DNA from: Candidatus Tayloriibacteriota bacterium
GTDB taxonomy: Bacteria; Patescibacteriota; Minisyncoccia; Phycocordibacterales; PALSA-1337
Length of the DNA: 64,000 bases
Assembly: GCA_003151615.1 (NCBI GenBank)
Contig: PLXZ01000001.1
Location: 134,544-198,543 of the forward strand
Direction: 5' to 3'
The position numbers and the translations under genes are program-made. Shown in pieces: positions 18,382-48,911 of this stretch. How positions within the stretch are numbered: position 1 is the stretch's first letter; each line of letters starts with the position of its first letter. The notes under the pieces were generated by a model that was not told the DNA's origin, ran no database searches, and saw nothing but the letters and a program-made list of their open reading frames with translations.

Positions 18382-18459
18382 CACGTGATTTTGCAATAAA
18401 ACGAGGGGAATTTCTGGCGGAAAAAAGGAAGTTCTGTTAGAATAGTTTTCACTGACATT

Positions 18460-18530
18460 GCGGGCATGGTTTAGTGGTAGAACACGTCCTTGCCAAGGAC
18501 GAGACGGGAGTTCGATTCTCCCTGCCCGCA
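18460..18530 (+). tRNA. tRNA-Gly (anticodon GCC); CCA encoded at 18531-18533
   Basis: Acceptor GCGGGCA/TGCCCGC, anticodon stem CGTCC/GGACG with loop TTGCCAA, T-loop TTCGATT. Confidence 0.85.
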
Positions 18531-18750
18531 CCATCGAAGGTCTCGAAAAGCCATATTTATGGCTCAAAAATTGTCAGAAATAGATGTGAATAACTGTGCA
18601 TAACTCTGGGGATTACGTTGATAAAAGACAAAAAATATGGCCTATATTCATAAGGTCAAAATTTGATTTTTTCTTGATTTCCATCACTTTTAGGCTTATA
18701 TAGAGCCATATTTATTCAAAAAGACATAATTTTATCAAAACTTTATCCCC

Positions 18751-19304: not shown

Positions 19305-19337
19305 CCAGTGTCCAAGTAGTTTTAAAGTTAAATAATT

Positions 19338-19408
19338 GCGGGACTAGTTTAATGGTAGAATAGGAGTTTTCCAAACTCTTGGTGGGAGTTCGATTCTCCC
19401 GTCCCGCA
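19338..19408 (+). tRNA. tRNA-Gly (anticodon TCC)
   Basis: Acceptor GCGGGAC/GTCCCGC, anticodon stem GGAGT/ACTCT with loop TTTCCAA, T-loop TTCGATT. Ends 2 nt before the next ATG. Confidence 0.85.
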
Positions 19409-19410
19409 CT

Positions 19411-39117: not shown

Positions 39118-39296
39118 ATATTTTTGGCCTTATTTAGAGCCATATTTTAAGGGCACTTTGATAATTTTTTGTAAAAAAAGCCCGCCGTGAAGCGAACTGT
39201 CATGTTGACATCTTAGCGCCTTTTGGCGTTTTGTCAAATAGAGCTTGCGTGATAGAATATCTGCATAGAGTTGCTCAACTTCAAATTTTTATAATT

Positions 39297-42005
39297 ATGA
39301 AAAAAATGTTTGGCCGATGTTTTTATATTCTGCCGGCGTTCGCCACAACGGTTTTGGTTTTGATGAGCGTCGCGTTCCAAACTCCTTCTATGGCATTGGC
39401 GAGCACGGCCACTTCTTCGCTTTCCGGCTGGGCATGGTCCGACAATACCGGCTGGCTTTCCTTCAATTCGACTGACAGTGGAGCGGGCGGCAGTCTGTAC
39501 GGTGTGATATTAGCCACAAGCACCGGATCATCTATCGGAACTCTTTCAGGTGACGGCTGGTCTCCCAACATTGGATGGGTCAGCTTCAATTCAAGCGACG
39601 TCACCAACTGTCCTTCAGATCTCGGTGCAACCCTCATCAATGGATGCGTTCCTTCGGTAAATGTGACGACGGGAGCGGTGTCGGGATGGGCGAGGGCGCT
39701 GGCGGGTACGAATAGCACCGGCCTTGTTGTTGCTTCATCAACAGTGCCGGCATGGGATCCCGAGACCCAATTATATGAACAGTTCATAGCGGTTACTAAT
39801 AACACCGGACAAAATCTATCTGGAGCGCGATTGACCATGACGTCTGCGTTGCCGAGCGGCGTTTCAGTCTTTGGCTCATCAGGCGGTACTGATGCCAACG
39901 GCAATATTTATTTCCAGGACAACTATCCTTTATCCGCGGGTCAGACAGTTTATTTTGGCATTGATTTTTACGATCCGACAAATACAAGTTTCAATCCTAA
40001 CTATACGCTTCAGGCAATGGCGACAACTTTGTCCGAGCCAACCATTCCAAGCGGAAGCACCCAGGTTTCGGTAAGCGCCACCTATTATGCAAGTGATCCT
40101 GTTTCTACCTATGTAAATTATAGTGGCCCTATAACTGTTTTGCAGTGGACAAGTATAAGTGGCGATCAATATGGTCTTCAATATAGCGATGACGGAGGCG
40201 TAACTTGGCATACAGCGTACGGTCTAAATAGCACGGCGGTATTAGATACAGCTGGCAGTAGCGCCACAATCCTTCTTGATTTTGGTTTACCAGCAACCGA
40301 TGCAGCCCCTATTTCTACCCGCCAATACAAGATGTGGCAGCTTCCTTCCGGTTCGTATCCCGCAAGAAACTTGAACTGGACGACGCAGGCCGCCGGAAAT
40401 CATTCTTGGTTTGGAATAACATCATCTGCCGATGGCAGCAAACTTGCTGCGGTCGACAACAATACTGGCTACGTATACACCTCCCCTGACAGCGGCGTCA
40501 CATGGACGGCTCAGACGGCTGCAGGTGCTCGTCTTTGGTCAGGAATCACTTCATCCTCAGACGGCACAAAAATCGCTGCAGTTGCTCAAACTGGCATCGT
40601 GTACACATCTGCCGACAGCGGCGTCACATGGACGGCTCACACCGTGAGTGGTGCGACATCATTATATAAAATAACATCATCATCCGATGGTACTAAAATT
40701 GTTGCGGTTGATACCCTAAGTACTGGCGGCTACATTTATACATCTGCCGACAGCGGCGTCACATGGACAGCCCGCACAGCGGCAGGTTCTCGTTCGTGGA
40801 TAGCGGTGACATCTTCTTCCGACGGGACAAAGCTTCTCGCAAGCGATCGTGCTGGAGGTTCACTGTACACATCTTCGGATAGCGGTGCCACATGGACGAC
40901 TCACACATTGGCGGGTGCGTGGTGGTCATTATCCTCATCTGCCGATGGTACAAAGCTGGTCGCCGCAGCGACTCCGAGCGGAAGCTATCTCTACACATCT
41001 GCCGACAGTGGCGTCACATGGACGGCTCGTATTGCAGCCACTGGGGCGTATGGGTGGGGGAGCGTAACTTCTTCTTCGGATGGAACAAAAATAGTCGCAG
41101 GTAATGCTGGCCCGAATGCTTATATTTACACATCTGCCGACAGCGGCGTCACATGGGCGGCGCAAATTCAATCCACAAGTACTTCCCGTATGTGGATGGT
41201 CACGTCATCCGCCGATGGCAGCAAAATAGCGGCGGGAGATTTTTATGGAACTATTCACACGGCGACATCTGTATCAACCACAACAACTGCCAACAGCAAT
41301 TCCGGCTGGGACGGCTGGATAGAACTCTCCGGCACCAACCATGCATCCCCTGATTTAACCGGTAACAGCGGCGTGACCTACAATTCAACCACAGGCTCTT
41401 TCACTGGATACGCATGGGGAAGCGATATCATAGGTTGGCTCAACTTCAACTCATCAGGGGCTTCAGCCTCAAGCTCGTGCAACCCGACATTGGAAGTCTG
41501 CAACGGTCCGGGATCATCCCCGACCCTCTCATGCTCGGGCTCACTCAACGGCAGTACCAACAAAATTACCTGGACCGCGACGATAACCGGCGGAGCCTCC
41601 CCGTATACTTTTGCGTGGACGCCCGGCTCAGGCACTTCAGGAACGCCGTCAACTGTCGGAGCAGTTTCCACCTACACCACCGGTACCCTGGCATCAACCA
41701 GTCCTGCCACCTCGTACTCCGTCACCGTTGCCGCAACCTCAAGCAACCAGACCGTGGCCATATCAAACGCCTGTCCGTCAGTACAGGGACCCCTGCAGTC
41801 GAGCCCTCCAAGCGGCGGACTCTGTACGTCAGTCCCTCCAAACGCCACGCTCTGTCCCGGTTCTTCTGCGGCCACCGGCTCAAGCTCCCTTGTTTCAACC
41901 TGTACCGCAGCAGCAGGAACTCCGATCTGCCAGTACTCGTGCTCTTCAAACTACCACCAGGTTGGCAGCCAATGCGTGGGGAACGGGAGCCTTCAGGAGC
42001 AGTAA
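39297..42005 (+). CDS. Large secreted Asp-box (BNR) beta-propeller protein with a Cys-rich C-terminal region; candidate pilus-associated adhesin
   Basis: Start at MKKMFGRCFYILP (signal peptide). At least 7 tandem blades carry S-x-D-x-G-x-T-W (YTSADSGVTWTA) alternating with TSSSDGTKI(V/A)A. The C-terminus has spaced Cys and PKD-like segments. It ends 19 nt before pilB. Confidence 0.55.
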   Translation: MKKMFGRCFYILPAFATTVLVLMSVAFQTPSMALASTATSSLSGWAWSDNTGWLSFNSTDSGAGGSLYGVILATSTGSSIGTLSGDGWSPNIGWVSFNSSDVTNCPSDLGATLINGCVPSVNVTTGAVSGWARALAGTNSTGLVVASSTVPAWDPETQLYEQFIAVTNNTGQNLSGARLTMTSALPSGVSVFGSSGGTDANGNIYFQDNYPLSAGQTVYFGIDFYDPTNTSFNPNYTLQAMATTLSEPTIPSGSTQVSVSATYYASDPVSTYVNYSGPITVLQWTSISGDQYGLQYSDDGGVTWHTAYGLNSTAVLDTAGSSATILLDFGLPATDAAPISTRQYKMWQLPSGSYPARNLNWTTQAAGNHSWFGITSSADGSKLAAVDNNTGYVYTSPDSGVTWTAQTAAGARLWSGITSSSDGTKIAAVAQTGIVYTSADSGVTWTAHTVSGATSLYKITSSSDGTKIVAVDTLSTGGYIYTSADSGVTWTARTAAGSRSWIAVTSSSDGTKLLASDRAGGSLYTSSDSGATWTTHTLAGAWWSLSSSADGTKLVAAATPSGSYLYTSADSGVTWTARIAATGAYGWGSVTSSSDGTKIVAGNAGPNAYIYTSADSGVTWAAQIQSTSTSRMWMVTSSADGSKIAAGDFYGTIHTATSVSTTTTANSNSGWDGWIELSGTNHASPDLTGNSGVTYNSTTGSFTGYAWGSDIIGWLNFNSSGASASSSCNPTLEVCNGPGSSPTLSCSGSLNGSTNKITWTATITGGASPYTFAWTPGSGTSGTPSTVGAVSTYTTGTLASTSPATSYSVTVAATSSNQTVAISNACPSVQGPLQSSPPSGGLCTSVPPNATLCPGSSAATGSSSLVSTCTAAAGTPICQYSCSSNYHQVGSQCVGNGSLQEQ
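40380..41260 (+). repeat. Tandem ~126-135-nt coding repeats with a near-identical ~30-nt core (ACATCTGCCGACAGCGGCGTCACATGGAC)
   Basis: Core copies start near 40488, 40614, 40749, 40878, 41004 and 41139. Four of them are identical or differ by one base over about 30 nt. Confidence 0.8.
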
Positions 42006-42024
42006 TTTTCGCACCATATAAATA

Positions 42025-43779
42025 ATGTACATTGAACAGGGACAATTAAAAAAGTTCATACTTGATTCGGGTCTTGTCTCGAAGGGTGATGTTGACGCGG
42101 CCGAAGATGAGGCCAAGAAAAAGAAAAGCAGTCTCGGCGAAGTGCTTGTTTCGCAGGGAAAAATCCGCGACGACAATCTGCGCCGCATGCAGGCATACGT
42201 TTTAGGTATCCCTTTTGTCGAATTGAAGTCGAAGAAAATTCCGTTTGAAACGCTCTCACTCATTCCTGAACCGGTTGCGCGTACCAATAATATTGTTGCG
42301 TATAAAAAAACCGACGACACTCTCGAGGTTGCCATGCTCGACGTGGACAATCTTTCTGCGATCGATTTCGTAAAAAAGAAAGTGCATTTGAAGATTTTGC
42401 CGCGTTTGACCGACGAAGAATCGATAAAAAGCGTCATTGTCCAGTATCAGAAAAGTCTCAAAGCCGAATTCGGCGACATTATCCAGAAAGAATCTGAAAC
42501 GTTGAAGGCTATTGCCGAGCAGGACGGCGGCGAACCGGCTAGCGCTGAAGACATGAAGAAAATGGCCGATGATTTGCCGGTGGTCCGCATCGTGGATACT
42601 CTTTTGAAGCATGCCATTTTGCAAAATGCCTCGGACATTCACATTGAGCCTCTTGAAGACCAGGTTTTGGTACGTTACCGTATCGACGGTATTTTGCATG
42701 ACGCCATGGTTCTGCCGAAAAACGCATCGTCATCGGTGACGGCGCGTTTGAAAGTCTTGGCGAATCTCAAACTGGATGAAAAGCGTCTGCCGCAGGACGG
42801 CCGCTTCAAAATCGACATGAATGGAGAAAAAGTTTCGTTCCGCGTTTCGGTTTTGCCGGTCTATTACGGCGAAAAAACAGTCATGCGTCTGTTGCGCGAG
42901 AATGTTTCGGGCTTTACCCTCGAACATTCCGGTTTTCACGGGGAAGGCCTCGAGCGAATTCATCACGCGGTGACGCAAACGACCGGTATGATTTTGACGA
43001 CGGGTCCGACAGGTTCGGGAAAAACGACGACTCTTTACACGGTTTTGGACATTTTGAATACGCCTGACGTCAATATTTCAACAATCGAAGATCCCGTCGA
43101 ATACCAAATGAAACGCGTCAACCAGACGCAGGTGAAGCCGGAAATCGGGTTCACGTTTTCATCCGGTCTGCGCACGCTCGTCCGTCAGGACCCTGACATC
43201 ATCATGGTCGGTGAAATTCGCGACAATGAAACGGCCTCCCTTGCCGTGAATGCCGCATTGACCGGGCACCTCGTGCTCTCGACTCTCCACACCAACAGCG
43301 CCGCCGGAGCGATTCCGCGACTTATCGACATGAAAATCGAGCCGTTTCTCCTCGTTTCGACAATCGACATCATCATTGCGCAGCGTCTCGTCCGCCGTCT
43401 CTCGGAAACAAAGGAAAAACACATTTTGACGAAGGACGAGCGGGCGGTTTTGGCGAAAACCGTCGACCTCGACCGGGTTTTGAAGGCACTGAAGGAGGAG
43501 AAAATCATCGAGGGCAAAAAAGATTGGGATGAGATTCCTTTTTGGAGGCCTGTTTCTGCGGGCGAAGGGGACAATGGATATAAAGGCCGCATTGTCATCG
43601 CCGAAGTTCTCAAAATGAGCCAGCCGATCAAAGAATTGGTCATTAAGGGATCTTCAACCAACGACATCGAGATTCAGGCGAAAAAAGAGGGGATGCTTTC
43701 TATGATTGAAGACGGTATATTTAAGGCAGTGCAGGGCTTGACTACGATCGAGGAAGTCCTGCGCGTCATTTCGGAATAG
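42025..43779 (+). CDS. pilB: Type IV pilus assembly ATPase PilB (GspE family)
   Basis: N-terminal GSPII domain, Walker A TGPTGSGKTTT, and Asp/His boxes (IMVGEIRD, TGHLVLSTLHTN). Confidence 0.9.
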   Translation: MYIEQGQLKKFILDSGLVSKGDVDAAEDEAKKKKSSLGEVLVSQGKIRDDNLRRMQAYVLGIPFVELKSKKIPFETLSLIPEPVARTNNIVAYKKTDDTLEVAMLDVDNLSAIDFVKKKVHLKILPRLTDEESIKSVIVQYQKSLKAEFGDIIQKESETLKAIAEQDGGEPASAEDMKKMADDLPVVRIVDTLLKHAILQNASDIHIEPLEDQVLVRYRIDGILHDAMVLPKNASSSVTARLKVLANLKLDEKRLPQDGRFKIDMNGEKVSFRVSVLPVYYGEKTVMRLLRENVSGFTLEHSGFHGEGLERIHHAVTQTTGMILTTGPTGSGKTTTLYTVLDILNTPDVNISTIEDPVEYQMKRVNQTQVKPEIGFTFSSGLRTLVRQDPDIIMVGEIRDNETASLAVNAALTGHLVLSTLHTNSAAGAIPRLIDMKIEPFLLVSTIDIIIAQRLVRRLSETKEKHILTKDERAVLAKTVDLDRVLKALKEEKIIEGKKDWDEIPFWRPVSAGEGDNGYKGRIVIAEVLKMSQPIKELVIKGSSTNDIEIQAKKEGMLSMIEDGIFKAVQGLTTIEEVLRVISE

Positions 43780-43803: not shown

Positions 43804-45021
43804 ATGGCCCATTTTACTTACACAGCAAAACATCCGGAAGGCGAAACATACATCGGCGAGGCGGAAGCGGCCGATCATTATGAATTATATAAAATGATCC
43901 GCGAGAGCGGCGGGGAGATTGTGTCTTACAAGGAATCAAAAAGGAGCGGGATGCGCAAGATGAACATTTCCCTTTCTTTGGGAAGAATCAAGATGCAGGA
44001 GAAAATAATATTCGCCCGGAATCTCGGCGCCATGATACAGGCCGGACTGGCGGCGTCGCGCGCATTGTCGGTCATGGAGCGCCAGACGAAAAATGCGGCG
44101 ATGAGGAAAATTATAATCGCCCTGAATGAAAATATCAGCAAGGGGAAAACGCTTTCCGACGCAATGGCAGACTATCCGAAGATTTTTTCCGCCCTTTTTG
44201 TCTCCATGACGCGCGCCGGCGAGGAATCCGGAAATTTGGCTGACTCGCTCAAAATTGTCGCGCTTCAAATGGACCGATCGTATGCATTGTCCCGACGAAT
44301 TCGCGGAGCGCTCATATATCCGGCTGTGGTTATCGTGCTCATGATCATCATTTCGATAGTGCTCTTGACCTATATTGTACCTACGCTTACCAGCACATTC
44401 TCCGGATTGAATGTCACTTTGCCGGCTTCGACCCAGTTCATAGTCAACGTCAGCAACATAATAAGGTTTCACGGCATTATTTTGTCCATTGTCGTTATTT
44501 TAATCATCACTCTGTTCGTATGGTGGAAACGCCGGCCGCAAGGGAAGTCAGTCATTGACTATATCGTTCTCAAAATTCCCGTCATGGGCAATATTATCAA
44601 AGAAGTGAATGCGGCGCGCACGGCCCGAACCCTTTCCTCGCTCCTGACTTCGGGCGTTGACATGGTTGAAGCCGTCCGCATTACCACGGATGTCGTACAG
44701 AACGTCCATTACAAAAAAGTTTTACAGACGGCTCAGACGACGATTACAAAAGGAGAGCCGCTCTCGAAAGTTTTCAGCGAAAACGAAAAATTGTATCCGA
44801 CCTTTTTGACCGAGATGATGAGCGTGGGCGAAGAAACCGGAAAAATGGGCGAAATGCTTCTCGGTGTCGCGGTTTTTTACGAGGATGACGTGGAACAGGC
44901 GACGAAGGACATGTCCACGGTCATCGAGCCGCTCATTATGATCGTCATCGGCGCCGGCGTGGGATTCTTCGCGGTTGCCATGATTACGCCGATGTATTCG
45001 CTCGTCAATGTCATTTCATAA
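43804..45021 (+). CDS. pilC: Type IV pilus inner-membrane platform protein PilC (GspF family)
   Basis: 405 aa with two GspF repeats and three TM segments. Its end overlaps the next gene by 14 nt. Confidence 0.85.
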   Translation: MAHFTYTAKHPEGETYIGEAEAADHYELYKMIRESGGEIVSYKESKRSGMRKMNISLSLGRIKMQEKIIFARNLGAMIQAGLAASRALSVMERQTKNAAMRKIIIALNENISKGKTLSDAMADYPKIFSALFVSMTRAGEESGNLADSLKIVALQMDRSYALSRRIRGALIYPAVVIVLMIIISIVLLTYIVPTLTSTFSGLNVTLPASTQFIVNVSNIIRFHGIILSIVVILIITLFVWWKRRPQGKSVIDYIVLKIPVMGNIIKEVNAARTARTLSSLLTSGVDMVEAVRITTDVVQNVHYKKVLQTAQTTITKGEPLSKVFSENEKLYPTFLTEMMSVGEETGKMGEMLLGVAVFYEDDVEQATKDMSTVIEPLIMIVIGAGVGFFAVAMITPMYSLVNVIS

Positions 45022-46816
45022 TTTTAAAAATTCGGGCCGGAAAAATGCAGGTTTTACCCTCGTTGAAGCTGTCGTGGGCAGTTCGGTTTTTCTCATCATT
45101 GCCATTGCCGCCTACCAGGCCTATGCCAGCATTTTTCAGCTTGCCGCTGTGGATCAGAACAAAGTTTTGGCTCTCGAATTGGCAAATGAGCAGTTTGAAA
45201 TCGTCCGCAACTTGCCCTATGCCAACATCGGCGTTCCCAACGGCATTCCCAGCGGCGTGATTCCGCAGAATCAGACTCTCACGCGCGGAAATAGTGCGTT
45301 TACCGTCTCGACGATTGTCCGAAACATAACTATTTCGCTCGGAGCACAGAGCGCGAGTTCGACGGCGAGCACGACTCCCGCGGAAAAGCTCGTCGAAGTT
45401 ACAATTTCATGCGCAACCTGCAAAAATTTTACTCCTTTGGCGCTGACCACCCAGGTTGCCCCGAAAAACATAATTACCGACACGACGCAGGGTGCACTGA
45501 CCATCAATGCCTTTGACGCGAACGGCAATCCGGTTTCCGGCGCCGCGGTGACGGTGATCAACAATAAGGTTACGCCTTCGATTGTCGTGAATGATACGAC
45601 TAATGACAGCGGCGTGCTGAATATTGTCGGCGTCGCGACGGGAACTGCCGCATATCAGATAACCGTTACGAAATCAGGGTATTCGACGGACCAGACCTAC
45701 CCCATATCCGCGACCAACACGACGCCTACGCATCCGAATGCAACCGTGCTCGCCGAACAGGTGACGTCGTCTTCATTTTCAATAGACAAATTAAGCACCA
45801 TTGGAATTTCGAGCGAGACAAATGCCTGCGCGCTCGTGCCGAACGTCGGTTTTACGCTGGTCGGATCAAAAACCATCGGCGCAGGCCTGTCAAAATATGC
45901 CGCAACCAGCACGACGGGGAGCGGCGGACAGCTTACTTTAAATAACATGGAATGGGATACATATACGTTTGGGCTTAACGGCAGTTCGTATGATCTCGCC
46001 GGAATGAATGTCATCAATCCCGTTACCGTCAGCCCAAACAGCACCCAAAACGTGACGCTTGTCCTCACCGCAAAACATCCGGACAGTCTACTCGTCGCGG
46101 TCCAGGACAATTCGACCCTCCTTCCATTGTCCGGAGCCACGGTGACTCTCTCGAATTCATCCGGATATTCCTCGACCCAGACAACGGGTGAAGGTTTTTT
46201 CGACCAAAGCGACTGGTCGGGGGGGCCGGGACAGTCTGATTATGCGACTACGAACCAGTTTTTTTCCACTGACGGAAACGTAAATGTTTCAAATCCGGCA
46301 GGCGATATCAATCTTATAAAATCGGGGAACAATTACATTGCGTCGGGATGGATACAATCCTCGACATTTGATACCGGAACGGCGAGCAATTTCGACAATA
46401 TTATCTGGCAGCCCTCGAATCAGCCGGTTGGAGCCGGGGCCAGTAGCGTGCAGTTGCAAATTGCCACGAGCCCGACTGATACTTCGACGACGACATGGAA
46501 CTTTACCGGTCCTGACGGTACGAGCGGGACATACTATAACGTCTCGAATTCAACGATCAATTCGGCGAATAACGGCAACAGATATTTGCGATACCAGGTA
46601 TTTTTAAATACCCAGTCGGCAACGAATACGCCGGATTTGTCCGATATTGCCTTTACCTACGGGACGTTGTGCACGCCGCCGGGGCAGGTCCTGTTCCAAG
46701 GACTTTCAGCCGGCAGTTATACATTAACCACGAGCGCTCCCGGCTATGCCGGAAATTCCACAGGCGTAACCGTTTCTTCGTCATGGACTCAACAGACGGT
46801 TCCGCTGGGTCCGTAA
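45008..46816 (+). CDS. Giant prepilin-type protein (N-terminal methylation motif)
   Basis: Leader, then G|FTLVEAVVGSSVFLIIAIAAYQAY (class III signal). The 600-aa body is T/S/N-rich. Confidence 0.6.
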   Translation: MSFHNFKNSGRKNAGFTLVEAVVGSSVFLIIAIAAYQAYASIFQLAAVDQNKVLALELANEQFEIVRNLPYANIGVPNGIPSGVIPQNQTLTRGNSAFTVSTIVRNITISLGAQSASSTASTTPAEKLVEVTISCATCKNFTPLALTTQVAPKNIITDTTQGALTINAFDANGNPVSGAAVTVINNKVTPSIVVNDTTNDSGVLNIVGVATGTAAYQITVTKSGYSTDQTYPISATNTTPTHPNATVLAEQVTSSSFSIDKLSTIGISSETNACALVPNVGFTLVGSKTIGAGLSKYAATSTTGSGGQLTLNNMEWDTYTFGLNGSSYDLAGMNVINPVTVSPNSTQNVTLVLTAKHPDSLLVAVQDNSTLLPLSGATVTLSNSSGYSSTQTTGEGFFDQSDWSGGPGQSDYATTNQFFSTDGNVNVSNPAGDINLIKSGNNYIASGWIQSSTFDTGTASNFDNIIWQPSNQPVGAGASSVQLQIATSPTDTSTTTWNFTGPDGTSGTYYNVSNSTINSANNGNRYLRYQVFLNTQSATNTPDLSDIAFTYGTLCTPPGQVLFQGLSAGSYTLTTSAPGYAGNSTGVTVSSSWTQQTVPLGP

Positions 46817-47448
46817 TGTATACTAATATGATGAATCGCCGCACATTTACAAAAGGATTCACGCTCGTCGAGACGCTCGTCGTGGCCCTTATTTTCCTGC
46901 TCATCATGATGGGGGTGACGTCTTTCGAGCGCGACACTTTTTACGATAATTCCATTCAGAACGGATCCTTTTCCACGGTTCAAAGCGCCGAAGAAATTTT
47001 GCGCACAATGGTCACCCAGCTCCGGTCGGCTTCGGAGGGAAGCGACGGATCATATCCGATTCTCACCGCGGCATCAACGACGCTTACGTTTTTCACCGAC
47101 ATAAACGGCGACGGAATAAAGGAACGCGTGCGGTATTTTTTGTCGAGCACTACTTTGGAAGAGGGAATAATGGAGCCGAAGGGCACGCCGCTTTCCTACA
47201 ATAATGCCACGGAAACGATTTCATATATCGCGTATAATGTCCGAAATCTCGCTTCTTCCACGAATGTCTTTGATTATTACGACGATACATATAATGGGAC
47301 AAGCTCGCCCCTGACTCAGCCGGTTTCCGTTTCTGCGGTGCGTCTCGTAAAAATAACTCTCATTCTGGATCTGAACCCGAACGTGTCGCCGGGTCCGAGA
47401 ACGTATACGACGCAGGTCAGCCTGAGGAATCTTAAAGACAATCTATGA
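46816..47448 (+). CDS. Prepilin-type (pseudopilin/minor pilin) protein
   Basis: KG|FTLVETLVVALIFLLIMMGV after a short leader. The ATG at 46816 overlaps the upstream stop (TAATG); alternative ATGs are at 46828 and 46831. Confidence 0.6.
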   Translation: MYTNMMNRRTFTKGFTLVETLVVALIFLLIMMGVTSFERDTFYDNSIQNGSFSTVQSAEEILRTMVTQLRSASEGSDGSYPILTAASTTLTFFTDINGDGIKERVRYFLSSTTLEEGIMEPKGTPLSYNNATETISYIAYNVRNLASSTNVFDYYDDTYNGTSSPLTQPVSVSAVRLVKITLILDLNPNVSPGPRTYTTQVSLRNLKDNL

Positions 47449-48911
47449 AAAATCGCACAAAAAATGCCGGAATTATTTTGGTCAATGTCCTCGTGTTCGC
47501 AACGATTGCGATCATTCTCACGACTGCCCTGGTTCAATGGGGCGCGACGATTTTGAAGAATGAAACCCAGCTGACGAACAGCCAGCAGGCTTTTGAAATA
47601 GCGGAATCGGGCATTGATTATTACAAATGGCATCTGAACAATCTGCCGAGCGATTATTATGACGGCAATGCGTCACGCACTTCGCCGGGACCCTACGTGC
47701 ATTCATTTCAGGACAAGGACGGAAATACGCTCGGGCAGTTTTCGCTGAAAATTACGCCGCCCGCAACAGGTACGACAATCGTAACCGTCAAGTCAACGGG
47801 TACCTCAAGCACTACGCCAGTGGTTTCCCGAAGCATCCAGGCCCAGTTCGCCATTCCTTCATTTGCCCAATATGCGGTTGTTGCGAATGACAATATGAAT
47901 TTTGGGGCGGGAACCATCACCTATGGTCCGATACAGTCGAATTACGGAGTTCATTTTGACGGGACCGCGCATAACATTGTTAGCAGTGCCCTATCCACGT
48001 ATGTGGATCCGGACACGGGGTTAACGGAATATGCTGTTTATACAACAGGTGATCCACATCCTCCGACGACCCAGCCCGCAGATTCCGGTATATTTTTGGC
48101 GGGAAGACAGTTTCCCGTGCCGACAGTTGATTTTGTCGGAATCACCACAAATCTCAATAATCTGGAAACTATAGCGAATTCTGAAAAAAATGGCAGTACC
48201 ATTTACAACTACACGTCTTCCGGCGTACAGGGATATTACATCCAGCTTAATACCAACGATACGTTTAATTTGTACAAAGTGAATTCACTCGTGTCCCTCG
48301 CAGGCAACCCTAATTCATGCACGAACAATTCGACCGAACAGAGGGAGTCCGGCTGGGGTTCTTGGAGCATCAACACAAAGACGCTCTATAAAAGCAGCGT
48401 GCCGTTTCCGTCGAGCGGCGTCATTTTCTTCCAAGACAATGTCTGGGTTGACGGCGCAATTAATACGGCGCGTCTGACAATTGCCGCCGGTATTCCCGGA
48501 GCGACGAGTAACTACGCAAACATTACCGTAAATAACAATTTGACGTATACGAATTTTAACGGTCAGGATGTCATAGGCCTCATTGCCCAGGGAAATATTA
48601 ATGTCGGTTTTGTCAGCGCAGACAATCTGACAGTTGACGCGGCTCTTGTCGCCCAAAACGGAAGGGTCGGACGATACTACTATTATTCAAGCTGTACCTC
48701 TCCGTCGGGGTACTATTATGACCGTACAACGCTTAATCTTGTCGGTATGATTGCCACGAACCAGCGCTACGGTTTCGCCTACAGCGACGGGACTGGCTAT
48801 ATGAACCGAAACATTACCTATGACAGCAATCTTTTGTACGGTCCGCCGCCGTCGTTTCCCCTTGCGTCCAGCCAGTATTCGACCATTTCATGGGGAGAAG
48901 TGCCGAATTGA
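47445..48911 (+). CDS. Hypothetical N-terminally anchored protein, possibly a pilus-associated minor component
   Basis: ATGA overlap with the upstream pilin. The N-terminal hydrophobic helix NAGIILVNVLVFATIAIILTTALV is pilin-like but lacks the G-F motif. The 488-aa body is T/N/S/G-rich. Confidence 0.4.
   Translation: MKNRTKNAGIILVNVLVFATIAIILTTALVQWGATILKNETQLTNSQQAFEIAESGIDYYKWHLNNLPSDYYDGNASRTSPGPYVHSFQDKDGNTLGQFSLKITPPATGTTIVTVKSTGTSSTTPVVSRSIQAQFAIPSFAQYAVVANDNMNFGAGTITYGPIQSNYGVHFDGTAHNIVSSALSTYVDPDTGLTEYAVYTTGDPHPPTTQPADSGIFLAGRQFPVPTVDFVGITTNLNNLETIANSEKNGSTIYNYTSSGVQGYYIQLNTNDTFNLYKVNSLVSLAGNPNSCTNNSTEQRESGWGSWSINTKTLYKSSVPFPSSGVIFFQDNVWVDGAINTARLTIAAGIPGATSNYANITVNNNLTYTNFNGQDVIGLIAQGNINVGFVSADNLTVDAALVAQNGRVGRYYYYSSCTSPSGYYYDRTTLNLVGMIATNQRYGFAYSDGTGYMNRNITYDSNLLYGPPPSFPLASSQYSTISWGEVPN

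Follow-up and report, generated by a model that had tools for sequence, protein, structure and literature searches.

A Sec-secreted GW-repeat protein carrying an inserted beta-propeller, encoded directly upstream of pilB in a Candidatus Tayloriibacteriota genome

Introduction

Patescibacteria account for much of bacterial diversity. To our knowledge, every member in culture lives attached to another microbe, and the one attachment organelle demonstrated by experiment to date is the type IV pilus, in Saccharibacteria. Here we analyzed a 64,000-nucleotide (nt) stretch of a Candidatus Tayloriibacteriota genome (assembly GCA_003151615.1, contig PLXZ01000001.1, positions 134,544 to 198,543; hereafter the window) and focused on a gene for a secreted protein of 902 amino acids (aa) located directly upstream of pilB, the gene for the type IV pilus extension ATPase. 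A first-pass annotation made from the sequence had proposed this protein as a PilY1-like pilus tip adhesin.

PilX2 of Nanosynbacter lyticus TM7x, a minor pilin whose C-terminal domain is a seven-blade RCC1-type propeller, is required for host binding; it has been described as a candidate glycan-binding adhesin, and lectin-like accessory domains have been stressed on TM7x pilus proteins (PMC12206443 / PMC11623550). By this description, PilX2 can be likened to the window protein, as both come from Patescibacteria, are encoded at a type IV pilus locus and carry a seven-blade propeller. However, PilX2 is pilin-like, with an N-terminal helix and RCC1 repeats, whereas a cleavable Sec signal, a core of GW repeats (the GW core) and BNR/Asp-box blades characterize the window protein. 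Propeller adhesins on the pili of Patescibacteria are already known from PilX2; what appears to be new here is the GW family, its head-swapping loop, its C-terminal motif and its facultative link to pil genes.

PilY1 and PilC of Pseudomonas, Neisseria and Myxococcus are also Sec-secreted non-pilins that are encoded with minor pilins and contain a seven-blade propeller, and the role proposed for the window protein, adhesion in concert with the pilus, is like theirs. The PilY1 propeller is C-terminal, whereas that of the window protein is of the Asp-box/Ycf48 type and lies in an internal loop, and no sequence relationship, vWA domain or calcium-site motif was found in the window protein. The propeller is dispensable at this locus in the close relative L138. 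Ycf48/HCF136 (2XBG, 5OJ3, 5OJR) has seven blades, Asp-box turns and a non-enzymatic character in common with the window propeller; in cyanobacteria and plastids it exists as a separate protein, a photosystem II assembly factor, whereas the window propeller is one mobile module of a larger protein. Two other groups of propellers are relevant. Sialidases (GH33) have six blades, an F/YRIP motif, an arginine triad and a Glu/Tyr nucleophile pair, and the hallmark of sortilin/VPS10 proteins is a ten-blade propeller followed by 10CC modules. The choline- and cell-wall-binding repeats (Pfam CW_binding_1), short Trp/Tyr-rich hairpins that also occur in secreted surface proteins, resemble the GW core by eye; the core differs from them in having no Pfam match, another motif and spacing, and four repeats in one compact unit.

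Results

The 902-aa protein belongs to a GW-core family

The N-terminus of the protein, MKKMFGRCFYILPAFATTVLVLMSVAFQTPSMALA followed by a cleavage site before ST, is a Sec-type signal peptide, and the only hydrophobic 19-mer above threshold in the whole protein lies inside it. No prepilin motif G-F-T-L-x-E or class III signal was present at the N-terminus, and no N_methyl match was obtained with Pfam; since the signal is of the ordinary Sec type and a pilin N-terminus is lacking, the protein itself cannot polymerise into a fibre. The ATG at 39297 was preferred as the start codon over the TTG at 39231 in the program-made list of open reading frames (ORFs), which falls in a promoter-like region.

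Searching with the N-terminal third of the protein revealed a family of mostly 370-480-aa proteins. In a phmmer search of the N-terminal core against 1.84 billion cluster representatives, 2,639 matches were found at E<=1e-3 and 432 at E<=1e-10, and all the organisms named for family members were Patescibacteria (Paceibacterota, Minisyncoccales, Niyogibacteria, Kaiserbacteria and Nealsonbacteria). The core consists of four hairpin repeats, namely G-[WY]-A-W-S-x-N-I-G-W-I-S-F twice, then G-W-A-R-A..G-W-D-G-W-I-x-L, then G-Y-A-W-G-S-D-V-V-G-W-L-S-F. A hidden Markov model (HMM) built from 54 members matched the window protein (E ~1e-38) in two pieces, aa 41-141 and aa 585-719. The N-terminal piece corresponds to HMM positions 2-91 (E ~1e-26) and the second domain extends to position 138; GW motifs occur at aa 44, 85, 130/670 and 704. 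Judged from its sequence, the window protein is a member of the GW-core family, with a signal peptide, the four repeats, an x-E-x-COOH end and no membrane anchor. No Pfam or NCBIfam model matched the core, and a full-text literature search with GW motif strings found no paper. This family of non-pilin, Sec-secreted proteins appears to be undescribed in the libraries and literature searched.

The two pieces of the core are separated by an insert of ~515 aa, which sits exactly between GWARALAG (aa ~130-137) and GWDGWIELSG (aa 670), at the turn of the third hairpin. In the uninterrupted cores of P0151, P0141, L009 and L138, the same segment reads ..GWARAxAG(vgr)xDGWDGWIELSG... Among 121 members with a recognisable third repeat, the gap between its halves was at most 50 aa in 111, 50-60 aa in one and 88-535 aa in nine. 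Five of these nine long inserts were Asp-box propellers (the window protein, P0101, P0248, P0261 and P0369); the others consisted of a so-called mid domain alone (P0320), extra GW repeats (two members) and another repeat module (P0271), whose ~45-60-aa repeat is propeller-like by eye and has no Pfam match. In L024 (Taylorbacteria), the gene directly upstream of pilB encodes a Laminin_G_3/ConA-like lectin at the same GW loop. The turn of the third hairpin is thus an insertion hot spot.

AlphaFold2 was run separately on the insert (aa 165-690) and on the uninterrupted member P0151, because MAFFT set GW-family sequences onto the propeller with whole proteins and trimmed segments alike. The P0151 model was all-beta, with a predicted local distance difference test (pLDDT) score of 85-95 in the core, and Foldseek with the model of a family member revealed no convincing solved relative of the GW core. 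Within the insert of the window protein, aa ~197-354 were homologous to the loop insert of the propeller-less P0320 (32% identity over 166 aa, E 1e-21). This mid domain was mostly modelled at pLDDT <50 and matched no Pfam family.

Ten Cys occur in the C-terminal region, all of them within the last 175 aa (aa 728-893). The first-pass annotation is borne out in describing a secreted protein of about 900 aa with at least seven Asp-box motifs and a Cys-rich C-terminal region; the word "giant" overstated a size of 902 aa. Beyond the core, aa ~721-830 probably adopt an Ig-like fold, and other GW-family members have Pfam matches to PKD, FN3 or CARDB at the post-core position. A Glu at position -2 or an E[IVL]xP-type end was found in 84 of 120 GW-family members (P0126-P0245), compared with 3 of 119 propeller-only homologues. 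The ends fall into the types ..P-x-F-x-E-F, ..S-S-x-[ILV]-x-E-[ILK], ..K-S-S-[IL]-Q-E-[ILQ] and ..W-x-E-[IV]-P-x, with the core motif x-E-[FILQK]-COOH. In the 902-aa protein, where the motif is encoded at 41982-42002, no hydrophobic segment accompanies it at the C-terminus, and the tail is therefore unlike sortase- or exosortase-type signals. It may be an undescribed docking or sorting signal of surface and pilus proteins of Patescibacteria. As separate observations, the 488-aa protein encoded further downstream in the window ends in ..SWGEVPN (48888-48908), which resembles the ..KWEEVPI end of one GW subgroup, and a large GW-motif protein encoded upstream of pilM in L058 ends in ..REEIPF.

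The insert contains a Ycf48/BNR-type propeller

The window protein contains seven S-x-D-x-G-x-[ST]-W boxes, at aa 297, 396, 438, 483, 526, 568 and 613. Six of them lie within the propeller at a spacing of 42-45 aa, and the one at aa 297 belongs to another module further upstream. Seven SS-x-DG-[ST]-K half-boxes, from aa 376 to 637, alternate with the full boxes. AlphaFold2 predicted a propeller for aa ~359-661 with pLDDT >90. The count of seven blades comes from the sequence repeats and the best structural matches; blade 7 is shorter than the six full blades and, as we read the sequence, would be closed by the N-terminal strand ..NLNWTTQ...

Foldseek comparison of the insert model with the PDB gave 1,868 matches at E<=1e-3. 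The best were Ycf48 structures (5oj3, 2xbg and 5ojr), with template modelling (TM) scores of 0.69-0.75 on the target, and the remainder of the top 50 included generic WD40 and G-beta propellers and GH74 (xyloglucanase). Ycf48 was also the sole solved relative by sequence (phmmer against the PDB, 9e-5). The Pfam models PSII_BNR, BNR and BNR_6 stayed below their cut-off (21.4, 24.8 and 24.3 bits against 27). These results indicate that the propeller is of the Ycf48/BNR type by fold and motif, not a curated member of the Ycf48 family. Comparison of the structure with PilY1, sialidases and sortilin had been proposed as a check on the first-pass annotation. The propeller fold was confirmed, while the closest structure was Ycf48 and the protein resembled none of the three: PilY1 was absent from the 50 best of the 1,868 PDB matches; the seven blades lack a RIP motif by pattern search and contain no Glu at all, at odds with a sialidase; and the query had seven blades instead of the ten of sortilin and no Sortilin-Vps10 match, although some propeller homologues carry one.

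Among 5.8 billion proteins, the only full-length match was the 902-aa protein itself. About 1,560 other matches covered 24-46% of the query, corresponding to the propeller, and had very diverse architectures, with PKD, FN3, peptidoglycan-binding, dockerin and other domains; many were from Patescibacteria. Among the matches listed, the GW core was present in one of 119 propeller homologues. The blade cores were 64-82% identical to one another at the DNA level, and Tandem Repeats Finder detected no DNA-level array over the blades, which argues that they are not a recent DNA amplification. A crude pattern search for the calcium sites D-x-D-x-[DN]-G and D-x-[DN]-x-D found none. In another Patescibacteria genome the same propeller module is fused directly to a pilin: P0010 (L003/L004:10001-13498) has 1,165 aa, a prepilin N-terminus (..SRAFTLIELLVV..), DUF5122-type repeats and ~12 Asp-box blades, and its gene in L004 comes after that of a 200-aa N_methyl pilin.

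GW genes are linked to pilus genes

We examined pilB-centred and GW-centred loci. A GW-core ORF was present in 9 of 80 pilB-centred genome loci, always on the strand of pilB, and lay upstream of pilB in L009, L024 and L047. Conversely, pilB was found in 13 of 80 loci in a GW-centred metagenome scan. Where at least 3.3 kb of downstream sequence was available, pilB started within 3 kb on the same strand in 9 of 30 GW loci, four of them directly adjacent; against a generous chance rate of 2%, this corresponds to a binomial P <5e-9, in a test that treats the loci as independent although some have common ancestry. The PilB proteins at these loci were 39-96% identical to that of the window and represented several lineages. 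Prepilin-type N-termini occurred in 6 of 120 GW matches, that is, GW repeats were fused to a pilin. In L082, a GW-repeat protein is encoded among minor pilins and shares a C-terminal domain with the 602-aa pilin-like protein of the window (34% over 111 aa, E 7e-11). In lineages whose PilB shares only 41-44% identity, the genes pilM-pilN-pilO-pilB-pilT-pilC come after one for a GW-motif protein that has Cys-rich inserts. The statistical linkage of the GW family to pilB is strong but facultative.

The propeller gave a different picture. No Asp-box ORF was directly upstream of pilB in any of 49 related pilB loci by motif count, and tblastn of the propeller segments against 80 pilB loci returned no match. 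The link to the pilus thus comes from the GW core, not from the propeller. The first-pass annotation had taken the propeller as the basis of that link, a view contradicted by the diversity of the propeller homologues, by the rarity of the GW core among those listed, and by L138, which has no propeller at the locus. Its wider suggestion, an adhesin working with the pilus, does gain evidence of a functional link to type IV pili at the level of the GW family, for a reason other than the propeller.

Several further features of these loci were noted. The large proteins encoded before pilM, of which 660-800 aa can be seen before the locus ends (L056:3-2411, L058:3-2408, L061:1-2418 and L065:2-1996), combine GW-type hairpins and many Cys-rich inserts with a conserved ~300-aa C-terminal domain (motif ..LQTK.GDIY..NKYG..GNLTI..FDGR...NPPPGF..). 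By eye, the 488-aa protein of the window seemed akin to this domain; BLASTP found nothing and hhalign aligned only 19 columns (I-x-Y-D..PPP-x-F, E 0.11), so that we do not count the likeness as support. Runs of small proteins occur between GW genes and pilB or 5' of GW genes: four paralogues of 216-264 aa in which W..P..PP..N comes after an N-terminal membrane segment (L019:1367-5831), a similar 198-aa protein after a ~106-aa protein (L006:6982-7982), two gene calls, of 104 and 190 aa, in the corresponding place (L002:9104-9992), ORFs of 96, 262 and 471 aa (L009:2671-5339), and a 359-aa ORF just before pilB in each of L047 and L019. They matched no Pfam family and have no counterpart in the window. 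On three unrelated contigs (P0141, L005 with P0151, and L007 with P0127), a GW gene lies directly 3' of a gene for a ~716-760-aa class I aminoacyl-tRNA synthetase.

The gene is hypervariable between close relatives

The flanking proteins of L138 and the window are highly similar, with identities of 81% for trigger factor, 89% for ppa, 95% for nusA, 96% for pilB, 89% for pilC and 80% for the 602-aa pilin. Between nusA and pilB, L138 encodes a 375-aa GW protein without an insert, ~38% identical to the window protein in the core and the Ig-like part. The only well-conserved part was the Cys-rich tail (..CQYSCS.GYH.VGSQC.GNGSLQEQ). DNA similarity between the two (~78%) ends at 39313, just 3' of the start codon, and returns at 42014; the last ~25 codons of the ORF also align with L138 at the DNA level. 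A variable body between a conserved promoter region and a conserved 3' tail points to allelic replacement at a fixed, functional slot. The pattern fits diversifying selection on a surface-exposed recognition protein. Because L138 keeps pilB, pilC and the pilin genes without a propeller, the propeller is not required for pilus assembly.

A diversity-generating retroelement was considered as the source of variability and rejected: the window contains no template/variable repeat pair, and the difference from L138 is a whole-gene replacement. As a side observation, a bAvd gene, an accessory gene of such retroelements, is located at L002:20322-20531, 8 kb downstream of P0101, the closest relative in architecture.

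The gene probably heads a transcription unit with pilB

The ATG of pilB at 42025 leaves a 19-nt spacer after the stop codon of the 902-aa ORF, in which no terminator-like site was found on the + strand. The top + strand site of a promoter scan, at 39231..39258, matched 10 of 12 positions and had an extended -10 TG; the surrounding intergenic DNA is 88% identical to that of L138, both hexamers included. The ORF is almost certainly co-transcribed with pilB, because the spacer is short and free of a terminator and the upstream promoter-like element is conserved in L138. Since the gene body is not conserved, a promoter dedicated to pilB would have no conserved site there, a further argument for co-transcription. 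We strongly infer that the transcription unit begins with this ORF and runs on into pilB, pilC and three pilin-like genes.

Both the 19-nt distance to pilB and the shared operon had been proposed in the first-pass annotation, and both agree with these data, the operon as a deduction from spacer and promoter. Its phrase "whole type IV pilus set" went too far, as queries from related loci revealed no pilM, pilN, pilO, pilT or small major pilin gene further in the window.

Function of the protein and alternative explanations

We favor, as moderately probable, the reading that the 902-aa protein is a modular, fast-evolving, Sec-secreted adhesin, produced along with the pilus motor and the minor pilins and held on the pilus tip complex or the envelope, whose insert binds a host ligand. 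The conserved GW core and the C-terminal tail would anchor it, either to the pilus, probably at its minor-pilin complex, or to the cell envelope. The exchangeable insert would serve as the ligand-binding head, with a surface molecule of the host or partner, most likely a glycan or glycoprotein, as its target, and the head would be replaced between close relatives as targets change. The precedent for this reading is PilX2, a propeller minor pilin in host binding, together with the lectin-like domains on TM7x pilins. Physical association of the protein with the pilus is the more doubtful part of the reading, although a reasonable possibility. Several observations weigh against an adhesin tied to the pilus. 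The signal of the 902-aa protein is a Sec signal, not a prepilin signal; many GW-family genes are not near pil genes; none of five GW genes checked in a gene-position index has pil neighbours, pilB included, and three of the five follow a class I tRNA synthetase gene; and at many related pilB loci the closest large ORF upstream of pilB is nusA-sized (377-455 aa) and lies on the minus strand, with the GW core matched nowhere in the locus. The common ancestry of some loci in the binomial test counts in the same direction.

The Sec signal and the five pil-free contexts also suit a cell-envelope adhesin or coat protein, attached by its GW repeats to the wall or S-layer, acting at close range and merely co-regulated with the pilus. 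In about 70% of the family loci that extend far enough, pilB is absent from the 3 kb downstream, wall-binding modules typically consist of aromatic-rich hairpin repeats, and the weak best Foldseek matches of a family member were the multi-Ig adhesins SraP and SiiE and an S-layer assembly domain. We nevertheless consider this explanation unlikely, if far from negligible, given the strong enrichment beside pilB, the fusions of GW repeats to pilin N-termini and to a minor-pilin domain, the position of the gene as the first in the pil unit with a 19-nt spacer, and the lack of any Pfam match to CW_binding, LysM, SLH or PG_binding. Chance adjacency, by which a variable surface-protein gene landed in the nusA-pilB gap, would agree with the many relatives that have the nusA-sized ORF upstream of pilB and with a gene body that has no DNA similarity to L138. 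It is very improbable, as the same family occupies the same slot in L138, L009, L024, L047, L099, L108 and L122 and precedes pilM in distant lineages, and as the variable body is flanked by a conserved promoter region and a conserved 3' tail.

A true PilY1 homologue, a tip adhesin that primes assembly with minor pilins, would likewise be a secreted non-pilin with a seven-blade propeller and, as here, would be followed on the same strand by three pilin-like genes that are presumably co-transcribed. However, the Pfam models for PilY1 and the Neisseria PilC propeller matched neither the whole protein nor its parts up to E = 5, and no vWA domain was matched by Pfam in the 902-aa protein. The Asp-box/Ycf48-type blades and the absence of PilY1 from the best Foldseek matches, the internal position of the propeller, the presence of the same pil genes without a propeller in L138, and the lack of a D-x-D-x-[DN]-G-type calcium site by pattern search all tell against this explanation, to which we give hardly any credence. 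PilY1 homology is largely refuted, and of the proposed PilY1-like tip adhesin at most a functional analogue is left. The protein could instead be a secreted glycoside hydrolase (a sialidase, GH74 or F510_1955-like enzyme) acting on host polysaccharide, with no meaning in its adjacency to pilB. In its favor are a weak match to the NCBIfam "F510_1955 family glycosylhydrolase" (56 bits against a cut-off of 175), the GH74 xyloglucanase among the Foldseek matches and the frequency of Asp boxes in sialidases. Against it, the propeller has neither a RIP motif nor a Glu, one propeller is present where GH74 enzymes have two that form a cleft, and the best matches are to the non-enzymatic Ycf48, with blades highly regular as in binding scaffolds. 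A hydrolase is thus very improbable, and we regard the propeller as a binding propeller of the Ycf48/BNR type and not as a PilY1 homologue.

Returning to the pilus-linked adhesin, we put forward a further proposal with low confidence: GW-core proteins may be the PilY1 equivalent of Patescibacteria, that is, non-pilins that dock on the minor-pilin tip complex via the core, the x-E-x-COOH tail or both and bear an exchangeable head (propeller, lectin or nothing), swaps of which would set the host cell of the episymbiont. The locus is a testable candidate for host choice, since the family comprises at least ~2,600 clusters without a curated model, is enriched at the heads of pilus operons, accepts lectin and propeller modules at one loop and turns over far faster than its flanking genes. 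If the family is pilus-associated, it would provide a marker to predict host range from genomes and a new example of a domain-insertion "display scaffold".

Feature coordinates and surrounding genes

The coordinates of the features are listed in Table 1. The start codon of the ~210-aa pilin gene was picked by eye and overlaps the stop codon of the 602-aa pilin gene. A pilus role of the 488-aa protein is suggested by its gene position. The genes tpiA and pgk lie 3' of the 488-aa gene, and nusA and ppa lie upstream on the opposite strand.

Table 1. Features of the GW-core gene and the downstream pilus genes (window positions)
Feature	Position	Strand	Evidence or remark
Promoter-like element TTGTCA-16 nt-(TG)TAGAAT	39231..39258	+	~40 nt 5' of ATG
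GW-core/propeller gene	39297-42005	+	ATG at 39297, stop 42003-42005; 902 aa
Sec-type signal peptide, aa 1-36 (...SMALA/ST)	39297..39404	+	Read from translation; A-x-A site
GW core, N-terminal part, aa 37-156: repeats 1, 2 and first half of 3 (..VSGWARALAG)	39405..39764	+	GW-core HMM
Inserted module 1, aa ~157-358: linker and beta-rich mid domain, one Asp box (aa 297)	39765..40370	+	Homology to P0320
Inserted module 2, aa 359-661: seven-blade Asp-box (BNR/Ycf48-like) beta-propeller	40371..41279	+	AlphaFold2, Foldseek
GW core, C-terminal part, aa 662-720: second half of repeat 3 (GWDGWIELSGTNH..) and repeat 4 (FTGYAWGSDIIGWLNFNS)	41280..41456	+	GW-core HMM
Variable Ig/PKD-like region, aa ~721-830 (..TATITGGASPYTFAWTPG..)	41457..41786	+	Weak alignment with post-core part of L138 orthologue
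Cys-rich tail (seven Cys), end ..GNGSLQEQ-COOH, and stop codon	41787..42005	+	Conserved vs L138
pilB, type IV pilus extension ATPase	42025..43779	+	Pfam T2SSE 2.8e-120 and MshEN; PilB in source records
pilC, platform protein	43804..45021	+	Pfam T2SSF 8e-53
602-aa pilin-like protein (..NAG/FTLVEAVV..)	45008..46816	+	Pfam N_methyl, SpaA, CarboxypepD_reg; prealbumin/CarboxypepD_reg-like domains
~210-aa pilin (..TKG/FTLVETLV..)	46816..47448	+	Pfam N_methyl and NCBIfam IV_pilin_GFxxxE
488-aa protein, PilX-like hydrophobic N-terminus, end ..SWGEVPN	47445..48911	+	PilX_N match very weak (E 0.33)

A terminator-like hairpin with a T run is present on the - strand at 39179-39198, in the intergenic region between the GW gene and nusA, upstream of nusA, and is fully kept in L138; it could be a nusA leader or attenuator or a bidirectional element. 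The window spans an assembly junction in pilB (42025-43000), as the 562,931-bp ENA contig k141_1990104 ends inside pilB. Full-length pilB and the 602-aa pilin gene are on a 432,314-bp ENA contig, and the ~975-nt overlap is consistent, with pilB intact. The two contigs, ~995 kb together, probably represent the whole genome. Elsewhere in the window, two 78-nt direct repeats (18457-18534 and 19335-19412), 878 nt apart and 74% identical, are tRNA-like (..GGTTCGATTCTCCC..).

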